A stretch of DNA of 47,498 nucleotides from Methanobacteriota archaeon (GCA_005878615.1 VBLT01000106.1:1-47498), one strand, 5' to 3'; positions 119 through 19,182 are shown, counted from the first letter of the stretch. Numbers and translations are program-made. The notes: generated from the sequence alone by a model not told the origin.

Positions 119-191
119 GGGCCGGTAGATCAGCTGGAAGATCGCTATCTTGGCATGGTAGAGGCCGTGGGTTCAAATCCCACCCGGTCCA
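119..191 (+). tRNA. tRNA-Ala(GGC), no encoded CCA
   Basis: Cloverleaf: acceptor GGGCCGG/CCGGTCC with G3-U70, D-stem GATC/GATC, anticodon arm CTATC-TTGGCAT-GGTAG, T-arm GTGGG-TTCAAAT-CCCAC, discriminator A. Confidence 0.97.
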
Positions 192-264
192 CTTTCCCTC
201 GGTCCATACCTGCCTATTGCATGCTATAGAAACCCATAAGTACGTGCGTGCGCGTGTCCGCTTC

Positions 265-486
265 GTGGCCGCAACTACGATCCAGCTCAGCCACGAAATG
301 AAGAAAACCCTCGAAGGGATGAAGCTGCACCCCCGCGAGACCTACGAGGACGTCCTCGAGAGGCTCCTCGAGGATCTCCAAGAGCTGAACGAGCAAACCA
401 AGAGGGAAATTGAGCAGGCCGTCCGCGATATCAAGGCGGGCAAATACCGGACCCACCAGCAACTCAAGGATGAACTGGGTTTCTGA
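265..486 (+). CDS. antitoxin of RelBE-type type II TA pair
   Basis: GTG start, 73 aa, TTIQLS...ETYEDVLERLL N-terminus typical of archaeal antitoxins; TGATG overlap with toxin. Confidence 0.8.
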   Translation: MAATTIQLSHEMKKTLEGMKLHPRETYEDVLERLLEDLQELNEQTKREIEQAVRDIKAGKYRTHQQLKDELGF

Positions 487-740
487 TGGCCTTCGAGATC
501 ATCTGGTCCGAGCCGGCCATTCGTCAACTGAGGAAGCTCGATCGAACGGTCGCCCGCCGGATCTTCAATAAGGTCGGGGAACTCGCGGACAATCCCCATC
601 GACTGGTCCAAAGGCTCGTGAGCTCTCCTTATTACCGGGTTCGAGTCGGGGACTATCGCGTAATCCTCGACATTCAGCAGCGTCTCCTGCGAATTCTCGT
701 CCTCAAAGTAGGACACAGGGGATCGATCTACGACAGATAG
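486..740 (+). CDS. relE: RelE/ParE family toxin
   Basis: 84 aa, YRVRVGDYRVI and KVGHRGSIY motifs. Confidence 0.92.
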   Translation: MAFEIIWSEPAIRQLRKLDRTVARRIFNKVGELADNPHRLVQRLVSSPYYRVRVGDYRVILDIQQRLLRILVLKVGHRGSIYDR

Positions 741-786
741 GCGGGATGGAGTCGGTTTGAGATCGGACTTCGATTCTGGAGCCGGC

Positions 787-807
787 GGTCCAAATTCGTC
801 CCGATCT
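787..807 (+). repeat. degenerate copy of tRNA-Ala 3' end, inside a hairpin at 759-808
   Basis: GGTCCAAATTCGTCCCGATCT, 15/21 match to tRNA 170-190. Confidence 0.35.
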
Positions 808-833
808 CCCTCATGAGGTGGCCGTCGGGCAGC

Positions 834-1880
834 TCAGAGAGGGACATCGCTGTTCGACCAACGGACCTCCTTCCGCGCCGATTGGATGGGCATGCCGGAG
901 ACCTCCTCTTCGACGGCTTCTTTGACGTCGGTTTCCAACGGTCGCCACATCCGCACCGTGACTCGGCCCACCTGACGACGCCACGTCCCAACAAGCTCAC
1001 CGTTCACCAGGAGCGCACCCGGCCACACGGACTTGGGCCATAACTCGGATCGAGCTCGTGGCTCCGGCACGAGTAGTGCCCGGTCTGGGGACGCAAGATA
1101 CGGGTCTCCGGCCGGCAGCAAGCGTACCGTTTCGACGGGCCCCGCGCGTTCCAAAGTAGATCGGTCGGCACGAAGAGCCCACCGATTCCGACCGCCGAGT
1201 TCAACCTCGGTCAGTTCCGTTTCGAGAGACCGAAAGGTCTGCTGCGCGTCCGAGAGCTCCCCGCGTGTGGTTGCACCAAAGGATCCGGCCCACCCGCCCG
1301 ACCACCAGGCAAATTCCTCCGGCGTCGAAGGCCCGACCGACCGCAGGAACCGACGTGCGAGCTCGAGGCGAGCGGGTTCCGGCGCCTCGGTCGGAGGGTC
1401 GACCAGCCACCAGGATGTCGTGGCTCCATCCCACTCGATCCTCAACGAGCCCGTGATCGAGGCGATTCTCAATTCGCGGAAATTCACTCCGAGGGCTCGA
1501 TCGGAAAGCGCCCGATCCGGCCGAATCTTTCGGATTCGGAAGGCGCGTTTCGCCTTTTCGGCGGCGGCTCGCACGGACGCTCCCAGGACGGGATCGCGAG
1601 GGAACCGACCTAGCGTAAACACGGCCACATCGTGTCGGGGTACGACATACACGGCACCGCGAGGGCCCCATAGTTGGGCGAACCGGGGATCCTTCCATGC
1701 GGATGGGGATACGTCTTTCACGCGCGCGTGGAGCGCCAACACGGCCGATCGCGGAGCGCTGTCTTGGAGTCCTGCGAACGCGGCCTCGACGAGCCGGCCC
1801 GGCGGTAGGCGCCGGTGCAGAAACGTCGCACGTTGCCGGAACGCAAGCACATTCTCGCGGGTGATTGAAGCGATGGCCAT
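834..1880 (-). CDS. winged-helix (HTH_42) AlkZ/YcaQ-like DNA glycosylase family protein
   Basis: GLQDSAPRS, LARRFLRSVGPSTPEEFAWW, VRLLPAGDPY, GALLVNGELVGTWR motifs; ATG at 1880. Confidence 0.8.
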   Translation of the reverse strand: MAIASITRENVLAFRQRATFLHRRLPPGRLVEAAFAGLQDSAPRSAVLALHARVKDVSPSAWKDPRFAQLWGPRGAVYVVPRHDVAVFTLGRFPRDPVLGASVRAAAEKAKRAFRIRKIRPDRALSDRALGVNFRELRIASITGSLRIEWDGATTSWWLVDPPTEAPEPARLELARRFLRSVGPSTPEEFAWWSGGWAGSFGATTRGELSDAQQTFRSLETELTEVELGGRNRWALRADRSTLERAGPVETVRLLPAGDPYLASPDRALLVPEPRARSELWPKSVWPGALLVNGELVGTWRRQVGRVTVRMWRPLETDVKEAVEEEVSGMPIQSARKEVRWSNSDVPL

Positions 1881-2134
1881 CGTAGGCGCTGGGCGCCTGA
1901 ACGGGATCGGGGCCTTAAGCAACCCGTGCTCTCCCGAGGATTTCCCGGCCGAGATCGGCCCCCCGGCTCCTAACGCTGCATGACTCGACAAACGGCCCAG
2001 AGGTCCCTGGTCTCCGAGGCTTGAGAAAGGACATCCCGAACAGTCTTTCTCGAGGGGGTCGACCGGCCGTTTCAGCAAACGCTTAAGCGCACCGGCCGAT
2101 TCGGGCGCACCTTCCTCCCAATCGATGTGAGAAC

Positions 2135-2833
2135 ATGGGAATGATTGAACTCAAGAGCCCCGAAGGCAAGGTCCCAGGATTCTTGTCCGTCCCGAAGAAA
2201 GGCAGCGGACCGGGCGTCCTGGTCCTCCACGCATGGTGGGGTTTGACGGATTTCTTCAAGGGCCTCTCCGACCGGCTCGCAAGCGCCGGGTTCGTCGCTT
2301 TTGCTCCCGACCTGTATCGCGGGGCGACCGCGTCAACGAGGGAGGAGGCGAAGAAGCTGCTCGCGAAACTCGACGACGAAAGAGCCCGCCGGGACGTTGT
2401 CGGGAGCGTGAGAGGCCTCCAGAGCCATCCGGCGGTGCGGGGAAAGAGGCTCGGTGTCGTTGGGCTGTCCCTCGGAGCGTTCTGGTCTCTTTGGTTGGCC
2501 CAGGAGCTCCCTGGGGATTTGGGTGCAATCGTCCTCTTCTACGGGACTCGAGAGGGCGACTACGATCAGACAAAGCTGTCGAAGGCACAGGCGGCCTTCC
2601 TCGGTCACTTTGCCGAGACCGACGAGTTTGAATCCGCCGCTTCGGTGCAGGGTCTCGAGAAGCTCCTCCGCACCCTTGGGAAGGACGTCACGTTCCACAC
2701 GTACTCCGGGACGACACACTGGTTTTTCGAAAACGACCGACCGGACGCGTACAATGCTGGCGCGGCCAAGATCGCCTGGGAGAGAACGATTCGGTTTTTG
2801 ACGACCCAGCTGCCCGGCGAACTCCGAGGTTGA
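2135..2833 (+). CDS. dienelactone hydrolase family alpha/beta hydrolase
   Basis: VLVLHAWWGL, APDLYRG, GLSLG nucleophile elbow, HWFFENDRP, AWERT. Confidence 0.9.
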   Translation: MGMIELKSPEGKVPGFLSVPKKGSGPGVLVLHAWWGLTDFFKGLSDRLASAGFVAFAPDLYRGATASTREEAKKLLAKLDDERARRDVVGSVRGLQSHPAVRGKRLGVVGLSLGAFWSLWLAQELPGDLGAIVLFYGTREGDYDQTKLSKAQAAFLGHFAETDEFESAASVQGLEKLLRTLGKDVTFHTYSGTTHWFFENDRPDAYNAGAAKIAWERTIRFLTTQLPGELRG

Positions 2834-2854
2834 GGTTCGGATCCCACCCGGTCC
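2834..2854 (+). repeat. direct repeat of tRNA-Ala 3' end (att-like)
   Basis: GGTTCGGATCCCACCCGGTCC, 19/21 match to tRNA 170-190; abuts the stop codon of the upstream gene. Confidence 0.85.
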
Positions 2855-3002
2855 CCTTCATCACGAGGCCACATTGCAGTTCAAAGGGGAACATCGCCTG
2901 TTTCACCGACCCGATTTGACACGACTTTCTTTTATCATCGTAATGTGAATGACTTCAGCGTAGATTCTTCTAGGCTTGCGAAGTCGCAGATGCGGACGCC
3001 CG

Positions 3003-4289
3003 ATGGCTCGCAAACCATTCGCTTCTTCACAACCCACCCACAACTCCGCCTCGCAGCGCGAAGCTCACCTCCTCCTGATTGGGGCGAGCTATCGGACGTG
3101 CAGCCTGGAGGACCGCGATCGGCTCCAGCGTAAGTCACGACACATCGTGGTTCCGACGAGTTCCGACCACCACGCACCTTGGTCCGACGTCGTCCTTCTC
3201 GCCACGTGCAATCGCGTCGAAGTCTACGTCCTCACCAAATCACCGAACCTTGTGTCGCACCGCATGCGAAAATCCCTCGGCGTTTCCAGTAACGATCAAT
3301 CCCTGTATGTCTTGGACGCCGAGGATGCGGCGGCGCACCTCATCCGGGTTGCGAGCGGACTGGACTCGGTCGCGGAAGGCGAGCAGCAGGTGACCGAGCA
3401 GGTCCGAAACGCTCCCAAGCAACTCCCGTCCCCATCCGCGGACGAGCGTCCTCTTGAGGACCTCTTCTTGCGAGCGGCCAAGATCGCGCCTCGGATCCGC
3501 AGGCTGGCCGGAGTCCGTCCCGAAGACGCGTCGGCGAGTCACGCGGCCATTCGATTCCTGCAGGCCGCGGTGCCGGTGGAGAATCCAACCGTCGCCTTGA
3601 TCGGGACCGGGAAGATGGCCCGCATTGCCGCGCAGGCACTCCGAGGACGTGCCCGGGTCGAAATTCTGAATCGAGATGTCGCGCGCGCCCGACAGTTGGC
3701 GAAAATCCTGAATGGCGAGGCGGTTCCGTTGAGGAAGCTATCCCAGGTCCTCGCCGAAGCCGACGTCGTGGTCGCCGCAACGGCATCTCAAGCTCCCCTC
3801 GTCACGGCTCGCGGCCTCCGTGCCGCCATGCATCGTAGGGACGGTCGACCGATCTGGTTGATCGATCTGGGATTCCCGCGAAACGTGGATCCGACGTGCC
3901 GAAGCCTCGCGGGCGTTCACCTCCTCGACCTGGACAGGCTGGCGCCATGGGGCCGATTTTCCTCTTCGCCAACGGCGCAAGCCCGGGTCGAAGCCCGGAT
4001 TCGAGAGGAAGCGGAACGAATGGTCGAGTCGTTGCGACCGACCGCGTCCGCAGACGTCGCTTCCTTTCGAAAGACCGCGGAGGCCCTCCGACGACAGGAG
4101 GTTGCGGAGGCCTTGGGCCGTTTGCCCGAGCTCTCCAAGGAGGGGCAGACCGTCGTGGATCGGCTTGCGACCCGGCTCGTGAATCGCCTGTTGCACGCCC
4201 CCACTCGACACCTCTACGCCCTCCCGGAGGGCCGGCGCAAGGAACTGATCCGGGAGATGGTCTCGGGCCTCCAGGGAGGCTCCGGATGA
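3003..4289 (+). CDS. hemA: glutamyl-tRNA reductase
   Basis: TCNRVE catalytic motif, VASGLDS..GE.Q, GTGKMA Rossmann motif, IDLGFPRNVD; start could be TTG 2976. Confidence 0.92.
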   Translation: MARKPFASSQPTHNSASQREAHLLLIGASYRTCSLEDRDRLQRKSRHIVVPTSSDHHAPWSDVVLLATCNRVEVYVLTKSPNLVSHRMRKSLGVSSNDQSLYVLDAEDAAAHLIRVASGLDSVAEGEQQVTEQVRNAPKQLPSPSADERPLEDLFLRAAKIAPRIRRLAGVRPEDASASHAAIRFLQAAVPVENPTVALIGTGKMARIAAQALRGRARVEILNRDVARARQLAKILNGEAVPLRKLSQVLAEADVVVAATASQAPLVTARGLRAAMHRRDGRPIWLIDLGFPRNVDPTCRSLAGVHLLDLDRLAPWGRFSSSPTAQARVEARIREEAERMVESLRPTASADVASFRKTAEALRRQEVAEALGRLPELSKEGQTVVDRLATRLVNRLLHAPTRHLYALPEGRRKELIREMVSGLQGGSG

Positions 4290-5212
4290 ACCCGCCCTTC
4301 CGGGTCGGTACCCGCGGGAGCCCCCTCGCACTGGCCCAGACGCAGGAGGTCGTGGACCGACTCCTCGCCGTACAGCCGGACGTACGAACCGAGACGGTCG
4401 TGATCCGCACGCAGGGCGACGAGTCCTATCGAGAGGACCTCGGCACGGCTCTCGACCGCAAGCGGGCTTTCACGAAGCGGCTTGAGGAGGCTCTGTTGGA
4501 CGACCGAATCGATTTCGCGGTCCACAGCCTGAAGGATCTACCAACGGAAACGGTTGAAGGAGTTGTCATCGCGGCGATCCCACCGCGGGGAGATCCGAGA
4601 GACGCGTTTGTCGCTCGGGAGCACTTGACGCTCGAGGACTTAGGCCCGGGCGTCCGGGTCGGGACGAGCAGCCTCCGCCGACGCGCGCAACTGTTGTCCC
4701 GCTGGCCCGACCTCGAGGTCCGGGAACTCCACGGGAACGTTGGGACCCGCCTCGGCCGGCTCGATACGAGGGACTTCGATGCGGTCGTCGTCGCGGCCGC
4801 CGGACTCGGTCGTCTTCGCGTTGAGGATCGGCGGGTGACTCCTCTGCCGCCGGAAATCATGACCCCGGCTCCCGGTCAGGGGGCGCTCGCGGTTCAGGCG
4901 CGGACCGGAGATCGTCCCGTCCTGGAGCTCCTCTCCTCGATTGACCACCCGAGCACCCGGCGAACGACGGAGGCCGAGCGCGCCCTGAGCGCTCGCTTCG
5001 GGGTCGGATGCAATGTGCCGTTCGGGGCCCTCGCGACGGCGGAGGGCGGGATCTCGCTCCGGGCGGTGGTCGCCGACCGAGAGGGTCGGCGCGTCGTTCG
5101 GGCCGAGGAACAGGCGGTCGCCTCCCAATGGGACCGAGTCGTCGAATCGGTCTGGATGAAACTGGTTCAAGGCGGCGGCGATGAGCTGGTAACGGAGGAG
5201 GCATCGCCGTGA
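4286..5212 (+). CDS. hemC: hydroxymethylbilane synthase (porphobilinogen deaminase)
   Basis: GTRGSPLALAQ, AVHSLKDLP, GTSSLRR, GNVGTRL, PAPGQGAL, GCNVP. Confidence 0.96.
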   Translation: MNPPFRVGTRGSPLALAQTQEVVDRLLAVQPDVRTETVVIRTQGDESYREDLGTALDRKRAFTKRLEEALLDDRIDFAVHSLKDLPTETVEGVVIAAIPPRGDPRDAFVAREHLTLEDLGPGVRVGTSSLRRRAQLLSRWPDLEVRELHGNVGTRLGRLDTRDFDAVVVAAAGLGRLRVEDRRVTPLPPEIMTPAPGQGALAVQARTGDRPVLELLSSIDHPSTRRTTEAERALSARFGVGCNVPFGALATAEGGISLRAVVADREGRRVVRAEEQAVASQWDRVVESVWMKLVQGGGDELVTEEASP

Positions 5213-5973
5213 GACATCCTCTCGATGGCGCTACGGTTCTCGTGGCTGCCTCGGAAGATCTCGTCGAAAGACTCGCTCACGCGGTGCGAGAACACGGAGG
5301 TCGCGCAATCCCCTTCCCCACCGTTCGTGTGACGCCGCCTCCGGATTTAAGAAAGCTGGACCAGGGGCTTAGGATGTGGCACCGTCTGGACTGCGTCGTC
5401 TTTACGAGCGCCCAGGGCGTCGAAGCGGTTGTCGAGAGAGCGCAGTCTCTGGGCCTGGACCTTTCCCGGTTCGCGGGCACCGTCGCGGTGGTTGGGCCCG
5501 CGACAGGGGCCGCCGCGGAAGCGGCCGGCTTTCCCGCATCAATCCTCCCGGAGGAGTTCCTCACGGATGCGATTCCGAACGCGCTCGGCGACGTCCGCGG
5601 CCAGACGATTTTCCTGCCCCGTTCGCGCCTCGCGCGAAAGGGCCTTGCGGAAGAACTCCGGGCCCGGGGGGCGAAGGTCCTCGAAGCGGACGCCTACGAT
5701 GCCGTGCCGGCGGAACCCGACCTCGCCTCCGTCCGGCGCGAGCGGAAGTTCGACTTCGTCCTGCTGACGAGCGCCTCCGCCGCGAACAACTTGGCAACCC
5801 TGCTGCCGGATGACCTGCGCAAGCGATTGATCGACGAAGCGGGCGCGGTGTGCATCGGCCCGATCGCCGCCGAGGCCGCACGCTCCTTGGGGTTCCGCGT
5901 GCGTGCCATCGCCCGGGAGCACACCGTGCCCGGCCTCGTTGAGTGCCTCCTCGAGGTCCAAGCCCATGGTTGA
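5209..5973 (+). CDS. hemD: uroporphyrinogen-III synthase
   Basis: VFTSAQGV, VGPAT, LTSASAA, CIGP motifs; operon position. Confidence 0.92.
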   Translation: MRHPLDGATVLVAASEDLVERLAHAVREHGGRAIPFPTVRVTPPPDLRKLDQGLRMWHRLDCVVFTSAQGVEAVVERAQSLGLDLSRFAGTVAVVGPATGAAAEAAGFPASILPEEFLTDAIPNALGDVRGQTIFLPRSRLARKGLAEELRARGAKVLEADAYDAVPAEPDLASVRRERKFDFVLLTSASAANNLATLLPDDLRKRLIDEAGAVCIGPIAAEAARSLGFRVRAIAREHTVPGLVECLLEVQAHG

Positions 5974-6958
5974 GCTCCCGCGTCCCCGACATCGACCTCG
6001 ACGCCTTCGGAGGAGCCCGGCCCTCCGGGCTCTTGTTCGCGAGACGTCCGTCGAGCCAGCCCGGCTCGTACAACCGCTCTTCATCCGCGAAAATCGGAGA
6101 GCGGGAGCCCGCATTCCGTCCATGCCTGGAATTCGTCGCCTGACGGTGGACGAAGTTCCGGCCGAGACCAAGGAACTCCTCGGGCTGGACGTTTCCGCCG
6201 TCCTCTTGTTCGGTGTCCCTGCAGAGAAGGACCCGCTTGGACAGGGAGCGTACGACGAGGACGGAGTCGTCCAGACCGCGATCCGCAACATCAAGGAGGT
6301 CAATCCCGACATCGTCCTCATGTCGGACGTCTGCCTGTGCGGCTACACCGATCACGGGCATTGCGGGGTGATTCGAGGCGGGGGCGTTGACAACGACGCA
6401 ACCGTCGAGCTCCTCGCGAAGACCGCCGTGAGCCATGCGCGTGCCGGTGTGGACATCGTCGCTCCGAGTGCGATGATGGATGGGCAGGTGGCGGGAGTCC
6501 GGGCGGCGCTCGACCGGGAGGGGTTCGAGGACACGGCGATCCTCGCGTATGCGGCGAAGCACGCCTCCGCGTTTTACGGTCCTTTCCGGGACGCGGCGGA
6601 TTCCGCTCCTCGGTTCGGGGACCGCCGCGGCTATCAGAAGGATCCTGCCAATCTCCGCGAATCGCTTCGCGAGATCGCCCTCGACCTGGAAGAGGGAGCG
6701 GACATCGTGATGGTGAAACCGGCGCTTCCCTACTTGGACGTGATCCGAGCGGCCCGGGAACGCTTCGATGCGCCGCTCGCGGCGTATGCGGTCAGCGGCG
6801 AGTATGCCATGATCAAAGCGGCCGCGGACCGGGGATGGATCGATGAACGGGCCGTCGTCGAGGAGACTCTGACGGCAATCCGCCGCGCCGGGGCGGACTT
6901 CATCTTGACGTATCACGCGAAGGACTTTGCGCGCTGGCGGGAAGAGGGATCGGCATGA
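5966..6958 (+). CDS. hemB: porphobilinogen synthase (Zn-type)
   Basis: DVCLCGYTDHGHCG, APSAMMDG, FYGPFRDAA, MVKPAL. Confidence 0.97.
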   Translation: MVELPRPRHRPRRLRRSPALRALVRETSVEPARLVQPLFIRENRRAGARIPSMPGIRRLTVDEVPAETKELLGLDVSAVLLFGVPAEKDPLGQGAYDEDGVVQTAIRNIKEVNPDIVLMSDVCLCGYTDHGHCGVIRGGGVDNDATVELLAKTAVSHARAGVDIVAPSAMMDGQVAGVRAALDREGFEDTAILAYAAKHASAFYGPFRDAADSAPRFGDRRGYQKDPANLRESLREIALDLEEGADIVMVKPALPYLDVIRAARERFDAPLAAYAVSGEYAMIKAAADRGWIDERAVVEETLTAIRRAGADFILTYHAKDFARWREEGSA

Positions 6959-7692
6959 CGGAGCTTCTTGGGGACGGGAGCGCCCGCGAATCGGAGGACG
7001 ACAACGAGCCACGGGAGTTCCTGAAGTATACGTTCTACAAGGTCCGTCCCGAATGGCGGCTCCTCGCCGCCGATACGAAGAAACAACAAAAGGCCGAGTT
7101 CTCGGCGCTCGTCCACGACCTCGAGGATGAAGTCAGCCTTCGGTGCTATGCCCTCCAGGGGATCCGAGCCGATACGGATTTCATGATCTGGGCTATCGAC
7201 CCGAAGCTCGAAACCTTCCGCGAGATGGCCCGTCGCATTGCGTCGACCGAGTTAGGGCACCAGGTGGACACCGCGTATGCCTATCTCGCCGCGAGCAAGC
7301 GTTCCCAGTACTTGGGTGGCCACGCCCATCCGGGGCAGGAGGGGCTCGTGACGAAGCCCGAACCGCTCGGGAGTCGATACTTGTTCGTCTATCCGTTCGT
7401 CAAGAAGCGCGAGTGGTACTCGGTCCCATTCGAGGAGCGGCAGAGGATCATGCGGGACCATTTCCGCATCGGACACCGATATCCGACCGTCAAGATCCAC
7501 ACCGCGTATTCGTTCGGCCTCGACGATCAGGAATTTGTCCTCTCGTTCGAGGCCGACGATCCTCTCGAGTTCCTCGACCTCGTCATGGAACTCCGTTCGA
7601 GCGAGGCGAGCAGATACACCGAGCGGGAGACACCGATCTTCACCTGCATCCTCTCGACGCCGGAACAGATGCTCGACGCCTTGGGGATCTGA
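6955..7692 (+). CDS. chdC: coproheme decarboxylase (chlorite dismutase family, HemQ)
   Basis: YPFVK (Y-P-x-x-K), WY, proximal H in MRDH, YSFGLDDQEF; embedded in heme operon. Confidence 0.85.
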   Translation: MTELLGDGSARESEDDNEPREFLKYTFYKVRPEWRLLAADTKKQQKAEFSALVHDLEDEVSLRCYALQGIRADTDFMIWAIDPKLETFREMARRIASTELGHQVDTAYAYLAASKRSQYLGGHAHPGQEGLVTKPEPLGSRYLFVYPFVKKREWYSVPFEERQRIMRDHFRIGHRYPTVKIHTAYSFGLDDQEFVLSFEADDPLEFLDLVMELRSSEASRYTERETPIFTCILSTPEQMLDALGI

Positions 7693-7693
7693 G

Positions 7694-10026: not shown

Positions 10027-10040
10027 GGAGGACACCAAGG

Positions 10041-11066: not shown

Positions 11067-11097
11067 TTGCGCGTCGGCCAGCTGAGGTTCGTGTTCG

Positions 11098-11118: not shown

Positions 11119-11190
11119 CCTTTCGGACCTGGCGGCGGACGGTGGTGTCCTGGCGGCCCCCGGCAACGAGGGCGAGCACCGCGCGAACGT

Positions 11191-11224: not shown

Positions 11225-11689
11225 ATGCCGGGATGGAAAGCGGCTCCTCCGAAGGATGACCACGGGTATCTCGACCTGATGTCCAGGGCGATCTTCAGCG
11301 CGGGCTTGAATTGGCGAATGATTGAGAAAAAGTGGCCCCACTTTCGAAAGGCGTTTCGTGATTTCTCACCGGAGAAGGTCGCGCGGCTATCGGAGCGCGA
11401 CATCCGGGCGTTGATGCAGGATTCGGGAATCGTCCGGAACGAAAAGAAAATCCGTGCGACGGTCGAGAACGCCAGGACGATTTTGGACTTGGCGAAGGAG
11501 CACGGTTCTCTGAAGGGGTACATCGCCGGTTTCGGGAAGCGCGAAGGGAAGCTGCTGGAGGATCTCCAATACAAGTTCAAGCACATGGGCCCTGCGACCG
11601 CGAGGGTATTCCTCTGGTCGGTCGGATTTCCGCTCACTCCTAACGAGGAGGAGAAGCGGTGGATGAAGGGGCATCCGGAGCACGACTAG
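11225..11689 (+). CDS. short DNA-3-methyladenine glycosylase I (Tag)-like protein
   Basis: AGLNW..I.KKW..FRKAF..F, GIVRNEKKIRATVENA, FKHMGP; lacks the terminal Zn ligands of full-length Tag. Confidence 0.8.
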   Translation: MPGWKAAPPKDDHGYLDLMSRAIFSAGLNWRMIEKKWPHFRKAFRDFSPEKVARLSERDIRALMQDSGIVRNEKKIRATVENARTILDLAKEHGSLKGYIAGFGKREGKLLEDLQYKFKHMGPATARVFLWSVGFPLTPNEEEKRWMKGHPEHD

Positions 11690-11790: not shown

Positions 11791-13221
11791 CTAGTGTGAA
11801 CGAATGTCGAGCGCGTGCTCCATCGTGTGGTGGTAGTGCTCCGGCGGCATCAGGCTCAAACAAGCGCGTTCCACGACCTCGCTCAGCGCCGGATGGATGT
11901 GCATGCCCTCGCGCACGGGATCGACGCTCCGGTCCTTCGTGTACATGAGGTTGATCAGCTCTTGAATGAGGACGGATGCCTCCGGTCCGACGATGTGGGC
12001 GCCGAGGATCGCGTGTCCCCGACGGTCGACCACGACCTTGACGAAATAGTCCTTCAGGTCCATCGCCTCGCCCTTCGCGGTGTCTTGGTACTGGTAGAAG
12101 CCAATCAGGACATTCGCGGCCCCGAACTGCTGGACGGCCTCCGCTTCCTTCAGGCCGACGCTCGCGACCTCGGGATCGGTGAACACGGCATGCGGGACCG
12201 CATGGTAGTCCACCTTCCGTTTCTCTCCCCCGAGGATGTTGTAGTACAGGATCTGCGCGTCGTAGTTCGCCTTGTGCTTGAAGGGGAATTTTCCGGTCGC
12301 ATCACCTAACGCCCATACGTTCGGTTGGGACGTCGCGAGGTACTCGTCCGTCACGATCCAGCCGTTCACATCGGTCTTGATCCCTGCGCGTTCAGGATGG
12401 AGGATCCGGACCGGGCCGCGGCCTGCGGCCACGAGAATTTCATCGGCCATGACTACGGTTTCTTTCTTCGTCGCCCGATCCCGCGCTCGAAGGCGCTTCC
12501 CTTCGCCCGTTCGGGTCACCTCGCCGACCTCGTAGTTCGTCTCGATCCGCATGACCTCGCTCAGGTGCGTTCGGGCGACTCGGGAGATTTCGGGCTCCTC
12601 CTCCGGGAGGAACTGGGGATTCCTCCCGAGGATCGTGACGGCCGCCCCCATCGCGGCCAGGAAGAATCCGTACTCCGCGGCGATATACCCGCCTCCGATC
12701 ACCGCGACGCGCGGGGGAAGCTTTCGAATTCCCAGGACCGTGTCGCTCGTGAGGTAGCCGGCCTCCACGAGGCCTGGAATCTCAGGGACAATCGGTTCCG
12801 AGCCGGCGCCGAGGAGGATCTTGGATCCCCTGATCTCGGTGCCGTCGACGCGCATCGTGTAAGGCGCCATGAATTCCGCGGGCGCATGGAAGTAGTCGAG
12901 GTTCTTGGAACTCGACAGCCCCTTGCGGATCTGGTCGATGTCCTTGTGAATCAGGGCATGCATGCGCTCCATCACCTTGACGAAGTCGACGGACCGCAGT
13001 TCGACATCGAGTCCGAAGCCGCGGGCCCTCCGGATCGTCCGGACGAGTTCCGCGGGGTAGAGCAAGATCTTGGAAGGGATGCACCCGCGGGTCAGGCAGA
13101 TCCCGCCCGGCTCGTCCCTGTCGATGACCGCGACCTTGATCCGAGGATTCGCTTCGATCATGGCCTCAACGACCGCCATGACCGATCCGGTGCCCACCGC
13201 AATGACGTCGTATTCTCTCAT
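11791..13221 (-). CDS. dihydrolipoamide dehydrogenase / mycothione-reductase-like pyridine nucleotide-disulfide oxidoreductase
   Basis: GGICLTRGCIPSK redox disulfide, GGGYIAAE, WALGD, HIHPALSE. Confidence 0.9.
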   Translation of the reverse strand: MREYDVIAVGTGSVMAVVEAMIEANPRIKVAVIDRDEPGGICLTRGCIPSKILLYPAELVRTIRRARGFGLDVELRSVDFVKVMERMHALIHKDIDQIRKGLSSSKNLDYFHAPAEFMAPYTMRVDGTEIRGSKILLGAGSEPIVPEIPGLVEAGYLTSDTVLGIRKLPPRVAVIGGGYIAAEYGFFLAAMGAAVTILGRNPQFLPEEEPEISRVARTHLSEVMRIETNYEVGEVTRTGEGKRLRARDRATKKETVVMADEILVAAGRGPVRILHPERAGIKTDVNGWIVTDEYLATSQPNVWALGDATGKFPFKHKANYDAQILYYNILGGEKRKVDYHAVPHAVFTDPEVASVGLKEAEAVQQFGAANVLIGFYQYQDTAKGEAMDLKDYFVKVVVDRRGHAILGAHIVGPEASVLIQELINLMYTKDRSVDPVREGMHIHPALSEVVERACLSLMPPEHYHHTMEHALDIRSH

Positions 13222-13604
13222 TCGCTCCCCTGGGCCCGAGGCCACAGGGAGCCGTTAATGCCTTCGGTGCACTGCACGATGTCGTCCTCAGAATATACGA
13301 ATCGCCGTGATGGGAGCTGGAGGCGTCGTGGAACGCGGAAGCGACTCGATGTTGATGCCTTGACCGTCGCGGTGGTGAGGCTTGGAGCGAGACACGGGTT
13401 GTCCACGCCTGTCAATTCGTTCATTCATGATCTGTTGAAGCTTTAGGACGAAGAGTGTCGAAGGCGGCCGGCAACGCCGCATGTTCGAGACAAGACGGAT
13501 TGAACGCAGCCGGATGAGGTGCGGAGTCCAATCTGCACCCGACGGGCCTCACCGCATGGCGAAACGCTTTAGGCGGGGCATGTGTCCGGGGCGCGAGGCA
13601 CTCT

Positions 13605-14654
13605 GTGGGGCGAGCTAGGACCTTCATATGGCCCATCGTTTGGGTGCTCGCGGTGACAGTGTCCCTCGGCATCGCAGGCCCGACCACCGCGGCCCTTCAG
13701 AAGCCGACCTATTCGACGGGCGATCACTGGATCTACATCACGACCGCGTCGATTTCCTCGTTCCCGGGCCTGAACTCCAGCCAAGGCAGCGGCCAATTCG
13801 GGCTCGTCGGTCAGGTCGAGGTTCGCGTGATCGGTCCCGCGGAAGTGCCGCGAGGGAACACGTCGGTGCACACGGTCCAGGTCCTCACGCGCGCGACGGG
13901 ATTCCTCAACGGGACGTTCCGGACGCCCGGTTTCGGGCCCGCGGACATCACCGGGACCTTCACGACGGATATGACCGAGTTCTGGGAAAATCAAGCCTAC
14001 CTCCCGATCGCATCGACCGGGACGACGTCCTACGTTGCCCATGTGACGTACATCCTCCCGACGGACCTCGTCGTCAATTTCCGCGCGAACGCGACGACGT
14101 CGATTTCAGCGGTGCCGACCTTCGATCTCGACGTGGGACAGCATGCCTCGGCGAATCTGGTCACCCACGTCGACCTGAACTCGACCTTCACCTTCTTCGG
14201 GCAGACGAGGAGCCAGAGGAACGCGACCGACCTGTCGTCGACGTGGCAGCGCGACGTGCTCTCTCGGGAAAACGTGACGGTGGAAGCGGGCACATTCTCC
14301 TCCTACCGGCTGAATCAGACGGCCGCGGGATTCTCAGGGCTTCCCCTCGGGATCTCGGCGGGCAACGAGACGGCCTTCTTCTCGAACGACGTCGGGTATT
14401 ACACGAAACGCGAGGCCTACGAGAACGGCAGCCGCGTCGGGGAGACGCGACTGAAGTCTTACTCGTTCGGATCGGCGCCGCCCTCTTGGCTCGGTACCTG
14501 GGGCCTCCCTCTACTTGTCATCGCGGTCGTGGCGGGGACTCTCCTCGCGATCGTCTTCTGGCGACGCCGAAAGTCTCGAATCCGACGACGGGCATCGCCG
14601 CCGGCCCCGGCCGATGCTCCGGGGTCCGGGGGAGGGAACGATCGTGCTCGTTGA
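13605..14654 (+). CDS. exported beta-rich protein with C-terminal TM anchor
   Basis: N-terminal signal-like segment, T/S-rich body with ENVTVEAGTF motif, C-terminal TM followed by RRRK. Confidence 0.75.
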   Translation: MGRARTFIWPIVWVLAVTVSLGIAGPTTAALQKPTYSTGDHWIYITTASISSFPGLNSSQGSGQFGLVGQVEVRVIGPAEVPRGNTSVHTVQVLTRATGFLNGTFRTPGFGPADITGTFTTDMTEFWENQAYLPIASTGTTSYVAHVTYILPTDLVVNFRANATTSISAVPTFDLDVGQHASANLVTHVDLNSTFTFFGQTRSQRNATDLSSTWQRDVLSRENVTVEAGTFSSYRLNQTAAGFSGLPLGISAGNETAFFSNDVGYYTKREAYENGSRVGETRLKSYSFGSAPPSWLGTWGLPLLVIAVVAGTLLAIVFWRRRKSRIRRRASPPAPADAPGSGGGNDRAR

Positions 14655-15561
14655 GACCAAGAACCTCACGAAGGTCTTCGGCGAGGTCCGCGCCGTCGAC
14701 GACCTCACCGTCGCGATCCCGGAGGGAGCGATCGGACTCGTCGGCCCAAACGGCGCCGGCAAGACGACGTTCCTCCGGCTGCTCCTGAGCCTCCTCCAGC
14801 CCACCGCGGGGACTGCGAAGGTCCTCGGCCGCGACATCCTCGACGGCGTGCCGTTGCGCGAGCGCATCGGCTACATGCCCGAGCATGATTGTCTGATCCC
14901 GGACATGACGGGCGTCGGGCTCGTCGCCTTCATGGGCCGCGTGAGCGGGCTCGACGCCGACAGCGCGATCGGTCGCGCGCACGACGTGCTGCAGTTCGTC
15001 GGGGTCGAAGAAGAACGCTACCGCAAAGTCGCCGAATACTCGACAGGCATGAAGCAGAAGGTGAAGCTCGCCCAATCGATGGTTCACGACCCGCAGTTGT
15101 ACATCTTCGATGAGCCCACCACCGGCCTGGACCCGCGAGGCCGGACGGAAATGCTCGACCTGGTGCGCGCGATCGCGAGCTCGCCGGGCCGTAACGTCAT
15201 CTTGTCGAGCCACCTCCTGCCCGACGTCGAGACAATCTGCAAATACGTCGTGATCTTGGATGGCGGGCATCAAATCGCCGCGGGGGACTTACACGATCTC
15301 CTGACCGGTGCCGCGGACCGACTCCGGATCGACATCCGCGGCGACCACGAGGCCTTTGCCCAACGGCTCCGGGAGACGGGCTTTGAGGCGGAAGCGGGCC
15401 CGACCGGCGTCCACGTGGGACGGCGACCTGGGGTCGAGGCCGAGGTCTTCCAGGCCGCGAGGGCCCTCGGGGCCGAGGTCCGGTACATGGGCCGGGAGAT
15501 CCGGAGTCTCGAGGAATTCTTCCTCGAACTCGTCGCCCGGAACGAAGGGAAAGGTGCGTAG
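14644..15561 (+). CDS. ABC transporter ATP-binding protein (ABC-2 exporter type)
   Basis: GPNGAGKTT, YSTGMKQK, FDEPTTGLD, SSH. Confidence 0.95.
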   Translation: MLVETKNLTKVFGEVRAVDDLTVAIPEGAIGLVGPNGAGKTTFLRLLLSLLQPTAGTAKVLGRDILDGVPLRERIGYMPEHDCLIPDMTGVGLVAFMGRVSGLDADSAIGRAHDVLQFVGVEEERYRKVAEYSTGMKQKVKLAQSMVHDPQLYIFDEPTTGLDPRGRTEMLDLVRAIASSPGRNVILSSHLLPDVETICKYVVILDGGHQIAAGDLHDLLTGAADRLRIDIRGDHEAFAQRLRETGFEAEAGPTGVHVGRRPGVEAEVFQAARALGAEVRYMGREIRSLEEFFLELVARNEGKGA

Positions 15562-16401
15562 ATGTCGATCTCGCTCCCGACCTACACGCGCCGCGAGATG
15601 CCCCTCCTCGGGCGGCGGCATCGCGTCCGCGCGATCATCACGACCGGGCTCCGTCGGGAATTCAAGCGCCCCGCGGTCCTCGTCGTCATCGGGATCGGCG
15701 TCGGCGTCACGATCATCACTTCCATCGTCGTCGTCCTCTTCGCGGGCGTGTTCCTCCAGGGCCAGCCGCTCGACCTGAGCTTCTTCTTCACGCCCGCGTC
15801 GAACGGTGCGATCCTCTTCTTCGTGACGCTGATGGCCTCCGTCGTCGGGTCCGCGCTGATCGCGGACGATCTCCAGTCGATGGCCTTGACGCTCTACCTG
15901 AGCCGACCGATCACGGAAGGGGACTACCTCGCCGCGAAAGCGGCGATCCTCGCCCCGATGATCTCGATGATCGCGGTCTTCCCGCTCGTCCTCACGCCCC
16001 TCGTCGCGGCCCTCCTCGGCTCGTTCTCCTGGACGATCGCACTCGAGGCCATTGGCCTCTCGTTCTTGATCGGCTCCCTCTTCACCGCGTTCTACACCGC
16101 CGCGACGTTGGCCCTCTCGAGCCTCACCCGTCGCAAGAGCTACGCGGCCGCGGGGGTCTTCGCCCTGACCTTCGGTCTGACCATCCCGGCGGAGATCCTC
16201 GCAGGCCCGCCTTTCAACAATCCAGCGGTGCTCTACGCATCGCCGTGGGAAAACTACCTCGCGGTGGCCCGCGCGGCCTTTGGCGCAACGGGCGCGCCGA
16301 TCGATTGGCGTTGGTCCCTCGCGATCCTGCTCGCGGCCACGGCGATCGCGGCCCTCGCCACCTACCTCCGGATGAAGTTCGTCGAGGTGGTGTCCGGATG
16401 A
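15562..16401 (+). CDS. ABC-2 type permease
   Basis: About 6 hydrophobic segments, LYLSRPI...Y..AK motif. Confidence 0.88.
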   Translation: MSISLPTYTRREMPLLGRRHRVRAIITTGLRREFKRPAVLVVIGIGVGVTIITSIVVVLFAGVFLQGQPLDLSFFFTPASNGAILFFVTLMASVVGSALIADDLQSMALTLYLSRPITEGDYLAAKAAILAPMISMIAVFPLVLTPLVAALLGSFSWTIALEAIGLSFLIGSLFTAFYTAATLALSSLTRRKSYAAAGVFALTFGLTIPAEILAGPPFNNPAVLYASPWENYLAVARAAFGATGAPIDWRWSLAILLAATAIAALATYLRMKFVEVVSG

Positions 16402-17318
16402 CCGGTGTCGTCGAGGCGGCGGGCATCTCGAAGTGGTACGGCGAGGTCCTCGGCCTCAACGGCTTTTCGGCCTCGTTCGGCCCCGGCATCACGGGCCTCG
16501 TCGGTCCGAATGGCGCCGGCAAGAGCACGTTGTTCAAGCTCCTCATCGGCCAGCTGCATCCGGACCAGGGGACCTTGCGGCTCCTGGGCGAGAATCCGTG
16601 GAACAACGTCCCGGTGAAGAGGCGCCTCGGCTACTGCCCCGAGCACAACACGCTCTACGGCTGGCTCACCGGGCAGCAGTTCGTGGAAGCCCTCCTGCGA
16701 CTCGACGGGATGCCGCGTTCGCAGGCCGAAAAGGCCGCGGAAGACGCCCTGAAGCTCGTCGGTCTCTCGAGCGCGGCGCAGCGTCCCACCCGGACCTATA
16801 GCCGCGGGATGCGCCAACGAGCGAAACTCGCCCAGGCGCTCGCCCACCGACCGGAGATCCTGATCCTCGACGAGCCGCTCTCGGGCGCCGACCCGCTGGC
16901 CCGGGTCCAGATCCTCCGGACGATCTCGGAATTCGCGAAGGCCGGCGGTCACGTCCTCATGTCGACCCATGTGCTCTACGAGATCGAGCGCGTCACCAAC
17001 AACATCGTCCTCATCAACAACGGCAAGGCGATCGCATCGGGTGACATCCGCTCGATCCGTGCCTTGATCGACGAACATCCGCACGCCGTGCGCCTTGAGA
17101 CGCCGCAGCCGCGACAGCTCGCCCAGGCCCTCGCGCGGATGGACCATATCGTCTCGCTCGAGATTCCCGAAGACGAGGCCCTGCTCGTCCGGACTCGCAA
17201 GCCCGATGCCTTCTACCGCGAGCTCCCCGCGATCGTGGCGGATACCCGGCTGGAGGTCCGTGGCCTCGAAAGCCCGGACGATAGCCTCGACGCGGTCTTC
17301 CGATATCTGGTGGGGTGA
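16398..17318 (+). CDS. ABC transporter ATP-binding protein
   Basis: GPNGAGKST, YSRGMRQR, LDEPLSG, STH. Confidence 0.95.
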   Translation: MTGVVEAAGISKWYGEVLGLNGFSASFGPGITGLVGPNGAGKSTLFKLLIGQLHPDQGTLRLLGENPWNNVPVKRRLGYCPEHNTLYGWLTGQQFVEALLRLDGMPRSQAEKAAEDALKLVGLSSAAQRPTRTYSRGMRQRAKLAQALAHRPEILILDEPLSGADPLARVQILRTISEFAKAGGHVLMSTHVLYEIERVTNNIVLINNGKAIASGDIRSIRALIDEHPHAVRLETPQPRQLAQALARMDHIVSLEIPEDEALLVRTRKPDAFYRELPAIVADTRLEVRGLESPDDSLDAVFRYLVG

Positions 17319-17322
17319 TCGG

Positions 17323-18102
17323 ACGGGCCTCGCGGAAGCGGTTCGCAAGGTCTGGGTCGTCACCGGCCTGACCTTGCGGTATTTGTTGGGGACGCGACGG
17401 ATCATCGCGATGGCCCTGCTCTCCGCGGTGCCACTCATTCTCGCGGTGGGACTGGCGGCGGCTCGCGTCGCAAGTTTCGACGTCCTGCAGCTCTTCCAAG
17501 CCGTGATGGTGCCGCTCTTCCTCCAGGTCGTCCTCATCTTCGTGACGTTGGTGAACGCGACCTCCCTCATTCGGGAGGAAATCGACGACAACACGCTTCC
17601 GTTCCTCCTGACCCGCCCGATCTCGAAGCCTGCGATCGCGACGTACAAGTATCTCGGCTACCTCGCCGCGGTCCTCATCCTGCTGGTCCCACCGCTGGTC
17701 GTGGCGTACGGCGTGACCGAGGCGTACGGCGGGCTTTCGTTCACCACCGACCTCGACGTGTTGGGAGGGTTCCTCCTCGTAACGGTCCTCGGGAGTGCAG
17801 CCTACGGGGGCCTCTTCCTTTTCATCTCGGTCCTCGTCCGCAAGCCGCTCGCGGTCGGCCTGCTCATCGGCTTCGTCTGGGAGTCGATCGTGGGATCGAT
17901 TCCGGGGGACGTCCCGAAACTCAGCGTCATCCACTACCTGCGGACGATCTTGAAAGGGACGATCACGGTCAGTCCCCTCGCCGGATACCGCACGGACCTT
18001 TCCGTCGCGACGGCCGTCGGCATCCTCATCGCGTTTTCGATCGCGATGGTCATCCTCACGATCGCAGTCTTCCAACAGATGGAGTTCCGTCAGAAGGCGT
18101 GA
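17323..18102 (+). CDS. ABC-2 type permease (probable ACG start)
   Basis: About 6 TM segments, EIDDNTLPFLLTRPISK motif; start uncertain. Confidence 0.85.
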   Translation, partial: TGLAEAVRKVWVVTGLTLRYLLGTRRIIAMALLSAVPLILAVGLAAARVASFDVLQLFQAVMVPLFLQVVLIFVTLVNATSLIREEIDDNTLPFLLTRPISKPAIATYKYLGYLAAVLILLVPPLVVAYGVTEAYGGLSFTTDLDVLGGFLLVTVLGSAAYGGLFLFISVLVRKPLAVGLLIGFVWESIVGSIPGDVPKLSVIHYLRTILKGTITVSPLAGYRTDLSVATAVGILIAFSIAMVILTIAVFQQMEFRQKA

Positions 18103-18139
18103 CCCCTCTTTCGGAGCGGTCTGCGGATTCACAGTGCTC

Positions 18140-18220
18140 CCAATGAGATATATGGTCTATAGTCTTTATATTGTATTATCACATATATTCTTAAATAGTT
18201 AGTATGGTATACGACTCAAC
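18140..18220 (+). promoter_or_regulatory. AT-rich promoter/operator region upstream of Fic gene
   Basis: Strongly AT-rich tract in GC-rich DNA; TTAAATA about 27 nt before ATG 18224; imperfect inverted repeats. Confidence 0.55.
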
Positions 18221-18223
18221 TGG

Positions 18224-19156
18224 ATGAGGGAAGACATATTGGGTCCCCTGCGAGCGGAGTTGCTCACCCGCAGCGCCCTCGATTCCCTGCCCGAGGGCGT
18301 TTGGAAGCGCACCGGGGCACTCAACACATGGGGCACGAACGCGATCGAGGGGAACACCCTGAGTCGCACCGACGTAGAAAGAATCCTCCTGGAGCAGAAA
18401 TCCGTCGGGAACCGTCACCTTTCCGATGTGCTGGAGACGATCCAGCATGCAGCGGCCTTTGCAAATCTCCTCGAGCGGAGGAGGGACCCGATCCGGCTCA
18501 CCACGGTGTTGGAGCTGCATGAGGAAGTGTTCCGCGGCATCAAGGCGGACGCCGGTCAGTGGCGGCGGGTCAACGTCCGGATCGGGGGCATGAAGCGTGC
18601 GCCTCCTCGAATGGAAAGGATCCTGCACATGATGTCGACGTGGGAAGAGGAGTACAAAGAGCGAGACATGCACGGAGAGGATCCGTTCAGCCTCGGCGCC
18701 TGGATGCATTTCGACTTCGAGTCCGTTCATCCCTTCAGCGACGGCAACGGTCGAGTGGGACGGTTGCTCCTCAACCTGCATTTCCTCAAACACGGTTGGC
18801 CTCCGGTCCATATCCTCCCGCCGGACCGAGACCGCTACCTCCGCGCTCTCGTGCGGGGACACGACGGCAACCTCTCCGACTTAGAGGGTTTCCTCGTCGT
18901 GGCCATGGCCCGTTCCTTGCTCGACCTCCTGGATCAGGTCGGCACCCGCGAGGATGAACTCAAACCTCTGAACGCCCTCTCTAAACACTCGCCGTACTCG
19001 GCCAAGTATCTGAGTTTGCGCGCGAGCCAGGAGGAGCTCCCGGCTCTCAAGGCATCGGGAGATTGGCGCTCGAGTGAACGCGCCCTTCAGGCCTACCGCC
19101 ACCTCGTCGGCCGGACTACGAACCGACCGGGTCGGCCAGCCAAGGGCACCGGTTGA
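18224..19156 (+). CDS. Fic/DOC family protein
   Basis: Canonical HPFSDGNGRVGR; N-terminal TNAIEGNT inhibitory-type motif. Confidence 0.95.
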   Translation: MREDILGPLRAELLTRSALDSLPEGVWKRTGALNTWGTNAIEGNTLSRTDVERILLEQKSVGNRHLSDVLETIQHAAAFANLLERRRDPIRLTTVLELHEEVFRGIKADAGQWRRVNVRIGGMKRAPPRMERILHMMSTWEEEYKERDMHGEDPFSLGAWMHFDFESVHPFSDGNGRVGRLLLNLHFLKHGWPPVHILPPDRDRYLRALVRGHDGNLSDLEGFLVVAMARSLLDLLDQVGTREDELKPLNALSKHSPYSAKYLSLRASQEELPALKASGDWRSSERALQAYRHLVGRTTNRPGRPAKGTG

Positions 19157-19182
19157 GGTTCGAATCCCGCCCGCTCGACTTT
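19157..19182 (+). repeat. diverged copy of tRNA 3' end (att-like)
   Basis: GGTTCGAATCCCGCCCGCTCGACTTT, 22/26 match to 170-195; abuts the Fic stop codon. Confidence 0.7.

Follow-up and report, generated by a model that had tools for sequence, protein, structure and literature searches.

A tRNA-Ala-anchored array of gene units delimited by tRNA 3'-end repeats in a soil Thermoplasmata archaeon

Repeats and gene units at the tRNA-Ala(GGC) locus

We examined a window of 47,498 nt (the whole stretch of DNA analyzed; VBLT01000106.1:1-47498, assembly GCA_005878615.1) from a soil Thermoplasmata archaeon, in which gene units separated by copies of the 3' end of a transfer RNA (tRNA) gene, tRNA-Ala(GGC), form an array that occupies positions 119 to 19,182. 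The genome comprises 1.96 Mb in 152 contigs, is 85% complete, and has a guanine-plus-cytosine (GC) content of 65%. The tRNA was located by ARAGORN and Rfam, and gene names are based on Pfam; a self-trained codon model, which missed AlkZ, hemC, and hemD and was unsuitable for contigs of 40% GC, served as a guide only. Picking open reading frames (ORFs) by length or by GC at third codon positions (GC3) yielded wrong genes, and both procedures were discarded. The features are collected in Table 1. An earlier note on this DNA had listed relBE, an AlkZ-like gene, a dienelactone hydrolase (DLH) gene, an eight-gene hem operon, a tag-like gene, an oxidoreductase, ABC transporter genes, and Fic, and the Pfam assignments agree with that list.

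The attachment-site core common to all copies corresponds to positions 170 to 190 of the tRNA plus the trailing ACTTT, to about position 196. The 21-mer at 170 to 190 recurs on the plus strand at 2834-2854 (19/21) and 11098-11118 (20/21), with 0 matches expected from 100 dinucleotide shuffles, and a same-strand copy with four mismatches (17/21) lies at 19157-19177. A repeat profile of 63 columns, built from 35 non-tRNA copies of relatives, detected the copies at 2834, 11098, and 19157 with E values of 4e-7, 3e-7, and 3e-6, respectively, and the recurrences of the tRNA 3' end claimed earlier at these three places are confirmed. In a scan of the whole genome, the only matches to the profile with an E value of <1e-3 beyond the three window copies fell at two other tRNA-Ala genes. 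The copies are alike past the tRNA end (ACTTT) and weakly alike over ∼15 to 20 nt 5' of the core. Every copy in the window is intergenic, as had been stated: those at 2834 and 19157 begin one base past the stop codons of the DLH and Fic genes, and that at 11098 lies 32 nt past the stop codon of hemH.

Two further copies are visible only by alignment. The degenerate copy proposed earlier at 787 is not detected by the profile (E > 10), but alignments of the relBE unit (92 to 94% nucleotide identity; L149, L171, and L147) continue through 787-806 onto intact copies at that place, and its 5' flank resembles that of a copy in genome G039; it is a true, decayed copy. Another copy, decayed beyond recognition, is placed between AlkZ and DLH by alignment to the copies of three relatives. 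Two refinements apply to the four modules described in the earlier note. Copies do lie at module borders, but the module of AlkZ-like and DLH genes, correct in its gene content, is split by this additional decayed copy, and the fourth module is composite, as no copy separates Tag from the oxidoreductase or the ABC genes from Fic. The block 11791..18102, which has a site copy at neither border, is native-like in GC content and in most relatives is located on other contigs. GC content is 56 to 60% in the relBE, Tag, and Fic units and 64 to 65% in the AlkZ-DLH segment, the hem unit, and the oxidoreductase-ABC block.

Table 1. Features of the array and associated loci. Positions refer to the window unless a contig or locus is named.
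Feature	Position	Strand	Basis or remark
tRNA-Ala(GGC), array anchor	119..192	+	ARAGORN, Rfam
Unit 1, toxin-antitoxin cassette, GC 56%	193..786	+	Pfam
DUF7557 antitoxin-like gene	217-486	+	Pfam
ParE/RelE toxin	486-740	+	Pfam
Decayed copy, end of relBE unit	787..807	+	Orthologous to intact copies in L053, L149, L171, L147
AlkZ-like DNA glycosylase	834..2078	-	Pfam, tblastn
Copy decayed beyond recognition (approximate place)	2015..2040	+	Aligned to intact or partly decayed copies of G017, G015, G007
DLH family gene	2135..2833	+	Pfam
Copy (19/21) + CCTT, left hem border	2834..2858	+	G010 homology stops at 2858
hem unit with own upstream region, GC 65%	2859..11097	+	Pfam
hemA	2976-4289	+	Pfam
hemC	~4298-5212	+	Pfam
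hemD	5209-5973	+	Pfam
hemB	5903-6958	+	Pfam
Chlorite-dismutase-like (HemQ-type) gene	6955-7692	+	Pfam
hemL	7694-9007	+	Pfam
hemE	9004-10026	+	Pfam
hemH	10041-11066	+	Pfam
Copy (20/21) + CCTTT, right hem border	11098..11122	+	G010 homology restarts at 11131
Tag-like 3-methyladenine glycosylase ("X")	11225..11689	+	Pfam
Pyr_redox (pyridine-nucleotide disulphide) oxidoreductase	11791-13245	-	Pfam
386-aa ORF of unknown family	13628-14788		
Two ABC ATPase + ABC-2 permease pairs	14515-18102		Pfam
Fic-domain gene	18224..19156	+	Pfam
Oldest recognisable copy (17/21) + ACTTT	19157..19182	+	Genome scan, profile
582-aa gene beyond array	19358..21106	-	64% aa homologue 3' of array in G039
Serine recombinase pair	C143:61487-62946 (own genome); L132:388-1974		
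G010 453-aa ORF at ancestral hem site	L125:3504-4865		

Arrays in relatives and relocation of the hem operon

Our comparison covered 38 genus genomes, 79 order genomes, and 43 loci from public metagenome contigs that contained non-tRNA copies. A pattern scan gave a match in 37 of the 38 genus genomes, at least 19 of which (among the matches listed) had more than one copy on the contig that carries this tRNA, and 20 of 27 genus loci contained two to four copies. Arrays were also present in a sister genus (G071, G072, G073, and G075) and in single genomes of two other families (G050 and G065), and the tRNA stood alone with no copies behind it in G021, G027, and G028. The metagenome loci held up to about nine copies each. 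All 205 profile hits were on the strand of the tRNA (loci being oriented by the majority of their hits), and the 23 metagenome loci containing the tRNA had 44 copies downstream of it and 0 upstream. Within the genus, the pattern scan found no copies outside arrays except true tRNA genes. Thus, in the genome and its relatives, the copies cluster directly 3' of this tRNA in one orientation and are not dispersed, a distribution that the earlier note had put forward for checking. Viral contigs searched with 25 nt of the site gave 0 matches; three viral-contig matches to 20 nt of the site were phage tRNA-Lys genes and not site carriers.

The units are small. Copy spacing had a median of 938 nt in genus loci (n = 33; range, 559 to 3388) and 830 nt in metagenome loci (n = 90; range, 419 to 5597), which makes the window intervals of 2.7, 8.3, and 8.1 kb outliers. 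Unit cargo included ParE/RelE and MazE-PIN toxin-antitoxin pairs, two Fic types, Tag and AlkZ-like glycosylases, hydrolases, HxlR, SnoaL, TfoX_N, DUF1326, and DUF5655 proteins, a double-GTPase pair, and several unknowns, with gene orientation within units mostly, not always, that of the tRNA. The toxin-antitoxin and Fic genes that had been called typical cargo are indeed so, as are repair genes, but metabolic cargo is not the rule: sub-kb units are usual, and the 8-kb hem unit is exceptional. Six metagenome loci of 40 to 43% GC (L160, L141, L162, L154, L159, and L169) carry arrays at the same site, with up to about nine copies in 13 kb and cargo that includes an alpha/beta hydrolase, a PKD protein, a plastocyanin-like protein, DUF1326, and a cupin. 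These contigs must come from an organism other than the Thermoplasmata of 60 to 65% GC, one with the same site. In one metagenome locus (L143, oriented 1413-3429), the first unit after the tRNA is 4.8 kb long and contains two adjacent DO-GTPase2 double-GTPase-like genes and two unknown ORFs; no integrase was found in it, and it may be defence cargo.

Comparison among relatives showed units gained, lost, and shuffled exactly at the repeats, as the earlier note had envisaged. The empty site is represented by G015 and G012, in which the tRNA is followed directly by ACTTTTCGGTGAAAG and Tag; the same ACTTTTCGGTGAAAG/Tag junction occurs at 28 of 199 copies elsewhere, behind one to several inserted units. 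Four cassette types have the same start flank behind the tRNA of one genome and behind an internal copy of another. Variability is greatest at the end next to the tRNA, where 23 genus loci have 17 types of first flank and 23 metagenome loci have 14, and Tag, AlkZ, DLH, and Fic are widely shared further from the tRNA; in G028, which belongs to a different family of the order, Fic comes directly after the tRNA. Unit orders include Tag-AlkZ-DLH-Fic, Tag-DLH-Fic, DLH-Tag-AlkZ-Fic, Tag-oxidoreductase-AlkZ-DLH, and, in the window, AlkZ-DLH-hem-Tag, with a copy at most borders of these reordered units. Further, the relBE unit is 93.6% identical in nucleotide sequence to that of G039, compared with 81% for AlkZ and 74% for DLH, the DNA 5' of the tRNA being unalignable; it also occurs as the second unit of contig L147, behind an integrase element. 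When contigs of other soil runs (contigs only, from older runs) were aligned to the window at 90% likeness, joints were seen from 193/195 to 11182 and from 11697 to 854, together with a piece joining the relE end to a site, all of them short-sided and compatible with the arrangements of other species too; the joints that skip units probably derive from other species in these soils.

A further case is the hem operon, which moved from an ancestral chromosomal locus into the array, where a copy flanks it on either side as in a cassette. G010, the closest relative, shares 92% identity over window positions 11131-17928 and has the DLH end and a copy followed directly by Tag, without hem. From this break in homology it follows that the extra DNA of the window, 2859-11120, consists of the hem operon, its upstream region, and one more copy, which is what insertion of a circle with one site would be expected to produce. 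In G003, G002, G009, and G016, the hem operon lies between two blocks that are adjacent in our genome at ∼54.4 kb of contig C142. This ancestral site is empty in our genome (C142:~54428-54533) and in G034, G033, and G017; G011 has the operon at a third locus, giving at least three different hem loci in the genus, and no hem match was found in G010 (81% complete) or G034 (84% complete). The operon itself is native-like in GC content and in its 67 to 74% nucleotide identity to relatives. This stretch of DNA is represented in 20 soil runs from 16 studies. Contigs of other soil runs cover 1415-3238, 1822-4881, 2621-4990, and 9307-11326 with few differences; the junction at 2834 is bridged by contigs of runs X4, X5, and X10 and that at 11098 by X10 (and by X1, a possible source). 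As these contigs come from other soil studies, the junctions are not assembly artefacts. A core biosynthetic operon can therefore become a site-bracketed unit, and since exactly that unit is present here and missing in G010, cassette origin and the gain or loss of an essential pathway are testable within the group.

Several observations concern the hem loci themselves. The profile found no site-like sequence at the empty ancestral site; a weak T-loop-like string follows hemH in G003, as seen by eye only. In G010, a 1.6-kb filler at the ancestral site was considered as a hem remnant or recombinase and rejected, as its 453-aa ORF reads like an M20 peptidase (no family search was made), and the ancestral locus adjoins a gene whose translation reads like endonuclease III. 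A palindromic TTATCATTGAAG.GATGATAAT-like element lies 5' of hemA in relatives (L027:4200-4240; L028), and positions 2900-2975 of the window retain a diverged form, TTTATCATCGTAATGTGAATGA; the element possibly acts as an operator or promoter.

A candidate integrase element and the origin of the array

As the earlier note had reported, no integrase lies at the locus; elsewhere, G010 and three soil contigs (L147, L161, and L152) have a tyrosine recombinase at this site. In these three contigs, the first or leading unit is larger and carries an integrase gene. The element measures 4.5 to 5.6 kb and consists of variable cargo (a pentapeptide or HEAT protein), int, abiEi, and abiEii, followed by a copy; that of L147 also holds an unknown gene. 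The integrase gene encodes 408 to 411 aa on the minus strand. The 411-aa protein of L147 matches PF00589 at 29.8 bits (cutoff, 27.1) over profile positions 14-170 of 172, and R184, K214, H305, R309, and Y340 are invariant among the four homologues. Tyrosine recombinases are characterized by the residue set R..K..H/R..Y. The ∼30 top Foldseek matches to its predicted structure, which lend weak support only, were all tyrosine recombinases (among them an integron integrase, XerH, XerA, Tn1549 Int, XerD, Cre, and lambda Int). The protein is a divergent tyrosine integrase. Homologues at the same place are 82% (L161) and 85% (L152) identical to it, and the one in G010 (contig C275) lies 1.1 kb 3' of its tRNA-Ala(GGC). 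Copies of the element end arm GACATCTGGCCATAGTTCGTAGGCATTCTG, changed little or not at all, are present in L147, L161, L152, and G034, and the array contig of G034 begins inside abiEii. Pfam found no replication family in the L147 and L161 elements. Since PF00589 missed the G010 gene, absences by this family are weak evidence.

A few observations touch on these integrases. The tRNA-Ala(GGC) of G010 ends in ...GGTCAA and not ...GGTCCA (L014:6469-6489 / L184:~375-396), a change in the last acceptor-stem base directly before the integrase element, which may have been brought in by the site copy of the element. Other tyrosine integrases of the genus adjoin tRNA-Asn(GTT) and tRNA-Glu(CTC) (L036, G048:C6; L042, G049:C23), and further tRNAs are thus attachment sites in the group. 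An SSV-type integrase was considered and rejected: none of the 38 genus genomes matched PF16795, and the integrase ORF lies uninterrupted within the element.

We propose, with a probability of roughly 0.78, that the array was built by one-way accretion at the tRNA attachment site through a family of tyrosine-integrase elements, followed by loss, shuffling, and decay, and that the window is now integrase-free. The attachment site would be the ∼25 nt of the tRNA-Ala(GGC) end from the T-loop to the discriminator base, plus CTTT. An incoming small circle would bring its own copy of this stretch, and integration would restore the tRNA from the copy of the element and displace the previous copy, with everything behind it, downstream. 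Repeated rounds would give a one-way array with the newest units beside the tRNA and older, decayed copies further out, and recombination between copies would also remove and reinsert units. The enzyme would most likely be the 411-aa integrase of the int-abiEi-abiEii element. The repeats with their confinement and polarity, the empty and occupied sites, the shuffling, the move of the hem operon, and the integrase at this site in relatives are observed; the role of this integrase in making the array, the crossover position, and any present-day mobility are inferred. Because the integrase is absent from this genome, the window units are without one and would be either fixed or mobile only with an integrase supplied in trans; independent movement of sub-kb units in this way is possible, with even odds at best. 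Repeated site-specific capture at one tRNA by a recombinase acting in trans or since lost, which the earlier note had suggested, is supported by the genome scan, by the relatives, and by the integrase found elsewhere.

Several points weigh against this proposal. Neither the window nor the 85%-complete genome has an integrase (0 matches to PF00589 and 0 by tblastn with the element proteins), and the integrase family is rare, occurring in 4 of 79 order genomes, at this tRNA only in G010, and in 3 of 43 metagenome loci. In G010, the gene spans two frames and runs into the contig end, which truncates it. The match to Pfam is marginal in score, the PDB gave no sequence match for the integrase or its four-sequence profile, and the AlphaFold model behind the Foldseek matches is poor (pLDDT, 60.7; pTM, 0.36; TM, ∼0.2). 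Simple decay of 5-kb elements would not predict sub-kb units that have no integrase remnant. Among the aligned contigs, there was neither a circular form nor an excision junction, and the joints described above, given their short sides and 90% likeness, can derive from other species. At the hem loci of relatives, the profile found no site-like sequence, and another mechanism of hem relocation is possible. Moreover, most genomes compared are fragmented metagenome-assembled genomes (MAGs), and related species are non-independent samples.

The integrase-less units could instead be deletion leftovers of full-size elements, with the differences between species arising through descent, deletion, and homologous recombination at the 25-nt repeats or in flanking genes, which we consider unlikely. 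Integrase loss after integration and tandem integration are both reported for archaeal elements in PMC8371274; AbiEii without an integrase stands at the start of two contigs (G034 and L172), where the contig is cut and loss is not proven; distal copies are increasingly decayed; and at 20 of 199 copies, the unit start resembles the start of the integrase element, ACTTTTCYATGGAGTGG, as expected if the units derive from it. However, tblastn found integrase fragments in no array beyond five loci with the full or partial gene (L147, L161, L152, and L180/L184 of G010), and the units are compact, with intact ORFs, both ends conserved, and the same unit at different ranks. The relBE unit is also far more similar between species than its flanks, and DLH and Tag swap relative order with a repeat at each border. 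A more far-reaching suggestion, which we make only tentatively and hold to be somewhat doubtful, is an archaeal integron-like cassette system, in which sub-kb units, each with a tRNA-Ala-derived site and an upstream region of its own, would be excised, shuffled, and reinserted at the tRNA by a recombinase that they do not encode. Such a system could also capture core operons such as hem. The recombinase would be either the Int-AbiE helper integrase or a CcrAB-like serine recombinase pair found across the order. If it exists, such a system would offer a natural case for tracing the birth of cassettes from native DNA.

That pair consists of a 283-aa protein with Resolvase and Recombinase domains and a 243-aa protein with a Recombinase domain, encoded beside HMG-CoA reductase in a syntenic position that is not IS-like; 36 of the 38 genomes of the genus and 73 of the 79 of the order have it (Table 1). 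Among named families, it comes closest to CcrB, CcrC, CcrA, and XisF, each of them below the cutoff, and it matches the integrase family phrog_95 at 7.5e-92. Large serine integrases combine Resolvase, Recombinase, and zinc-ribbon/coiled-coil domains in ∼450 to 700 aa; the 283-aa protein has the Resolvase and Recombinase domains only and does not belong to them. We judge it improbable that this host-encoded pair inserts small circles at the tRNA T-loop, as CcrAB does for SCC elements. The pair is present in array-rich genomes without PF00589 (0/5; G031), and there is a precedent in Dehalococcoides, in which, according to PMC3146451, CcrB-like DsiB together with DsiA is proposed to insert tandem ssrA islands in the middle of the tmRNA T-loop, with 20-bp repeats. 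Yet G021, G027, and G028, in which no copies follow the tRNA, have the pair just the same; the pair is not linked to the array and lacks the zinc-ribbon and coiled-coil part; and a tyrosine integrase sits within elements at exactly this site, PF00589 absence being unreliable. A phyletic link between pair and arrays was looked for and rejected, as the pair is order-wide and equally present in array-less genomes. On the side, an open frame of ∼550 aa lies directly behind the pair in G008 and G004, and 22 of 38 genus genomes have no PF00589 match at all; an Xer-type enzyme may be missing from most genus genomes.

It is hardly credible that the repeat is a dispersed REP/MITE-like or a terminator or processing element, or that the locus is an assembly chimera. 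The copies at 2834 and 19157 do directly follow the stops of co-oriented genes, so that a role at mRNA 3' ends is conceivable, and the window begins at a contig break with a 139-nt overlap to another contig, C66, that ends inside the tRNA. Against this, there are no copies elsewhere in the genome or outside genus arrays, barring true tRNA genes, and a REP/MITE-like element is ruled out by this distribution; for a chimera, independent assemblies bridge the junctions, and the same architecture is present in dozens of independent MAGs and contigs.

Accretion by a tyrosine-integrase element family agrees with what is known of tRNA genes, at which tandem integration is textbook knowledge. The repeats here are direct copies of the tRNA 3' end, downstream and co-oriented, empty and occupied sites share identical junctions, and a cognate recombinase, absent from the window, is present in some units elsewhere (L147, L161, L152, and G010:C275). 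Integrons have intI beside the array, an attI site, and attC sites that are imperfect palindromes. In our locus, Pfam found no recombinase gene 5' of the tRNA and no PF00589 match in the genome, and the repeats are the 3' 21 to 25 nt of tRNA-Ala(GGC) and not attC. The array is therefore not an integron, having no intI, attI, or attC. The earlier description as integron-like holds for a one-way cassette array that works like one, but not for these components. The spacing, co-orientation, and proximal variability of the units correspond to the small co-oriented cassettes entering integrons at one proximal site; both systems have a one-way array of small, mostly co-oriented cassettes rich in toxin-antitoxin genes, with proximal insertion, shuffling, and a recombinase that the cassettes do not encode. 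Unlike in integrons, the site is a tRNA 3' end, the units seem to bring an upstream region each, and the recombinase belongs to a mobile unit that most genomes do not have.

Elements with repeats of the target 3' end, entry at the intact gene, and recombinase-less units with both sites are also described for the ICESt1 family of cis-mobilizable elements, as cited in PMC3146451. Compared with that family, the host here is archaeal, the units are mostly 0.4 to 2 kb with one or two genes and up to about nine copies, the arrays have no conjugation or replication genes, and trans-mobilisation is only conjectural. The Dehalococcoides ssrA islands, as described in PMC3146451, are similar in standing in tandem 3' of one small RNA gene, in having ∼20-bp 3'-end repeats with insertion inferred at the T-loop and an element motif just 5' of the repeat, in often lacking an integration module (15 islands), and in carrying metabolic cargo; they differ in a CcrB-like serine enzyme, tmRNA as the target, and a size of many kb, compared with a tyrosine enzyme, tRNA-Ala(GGC), and far smaller units here. 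In Prochlorococcus tycheposon islands (bioRxiv 10.1101/2020.12.28.424599), a metabolic trait likewise acts as a plug-in cassette, but these combine up to 10 kb of cargo with a replication module, and most island DNA is not site-delimited; here, nearly every unit is site-delimited, no replication gene was found in the 4.5- to 5.6-kb element, and the host is archaeal. SSV-type elements (see PMC7253208) are archaeal, have tRNA 3' halves as repeats, and become trapped in the chromosome; their integrase gene contains the site and is broken in two by integration, whereas the integrase gene here is whole and in the middle of the element.

Tandem accretion at a tRNA is thus a known kind of event, and its miniaturised, integron-like form in archaea is unusual; we found no description of such arrays in Thermoplasmata in open-access papers and preprints. 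Gene capture in archaea by SSV-type "suicidal" integrases was reportedly put forward by She et al. in 2001. Long arrays of recombinase-less units of one or two genes, delimited by tRNA tails, functionally converge on integrons, and they seem to serve as a major channel of gene flux in an abundant order of soil archaea and occur with the same site on contigs of 40% GC as well.

Neighboring genes and further observations

Within the array, the true start of the AlkZ-like gene is probably further in than annotated, as relatives align from residue ∼45 to 66. Neither the 386-aa nor the 582-aa ORF matches Pfam, and the former is also without a match in NCBIfam and PHROGs; homologues of both occur within the genus. 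Ordinary chromosome follows past 19.2 kb, with genes for malate synthase, an oligopeptide transporter, aconitase, and others. The genes 5' of the tRNA are housekeeping genes, namely a metallophosphoesterase-like gene, an unknown gene, arginase, a permease, a CN hydrolase, and purF.

Positions 1-139 of the window, which end within the tRNA, are identical to the end of contig C66 (C66:1-139). This identity implies that the assembly graph forks at the tRNA, which would be the case if the sample contained strains that differ at this place. At 28027-29307, the window contains a gene that fuses HTH_10 with an O6-methylguanine methyltransferase DNA-binding domain; together with the Tag and AlkZ-like genes of the array, it makes the region rich in alkylation-repair genes. 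Finally, exact or near-exact 3' ends of tRNA-Pro(CGG) and tRNA-Gln(TTG) occur beyond the ARAGORN calls at C46:~2981, C62:~4928, and C18:~19636. These may belong to intron-bearing tRNA genes missed by ARAGORN, or they may be attachment-site copies of other elements.

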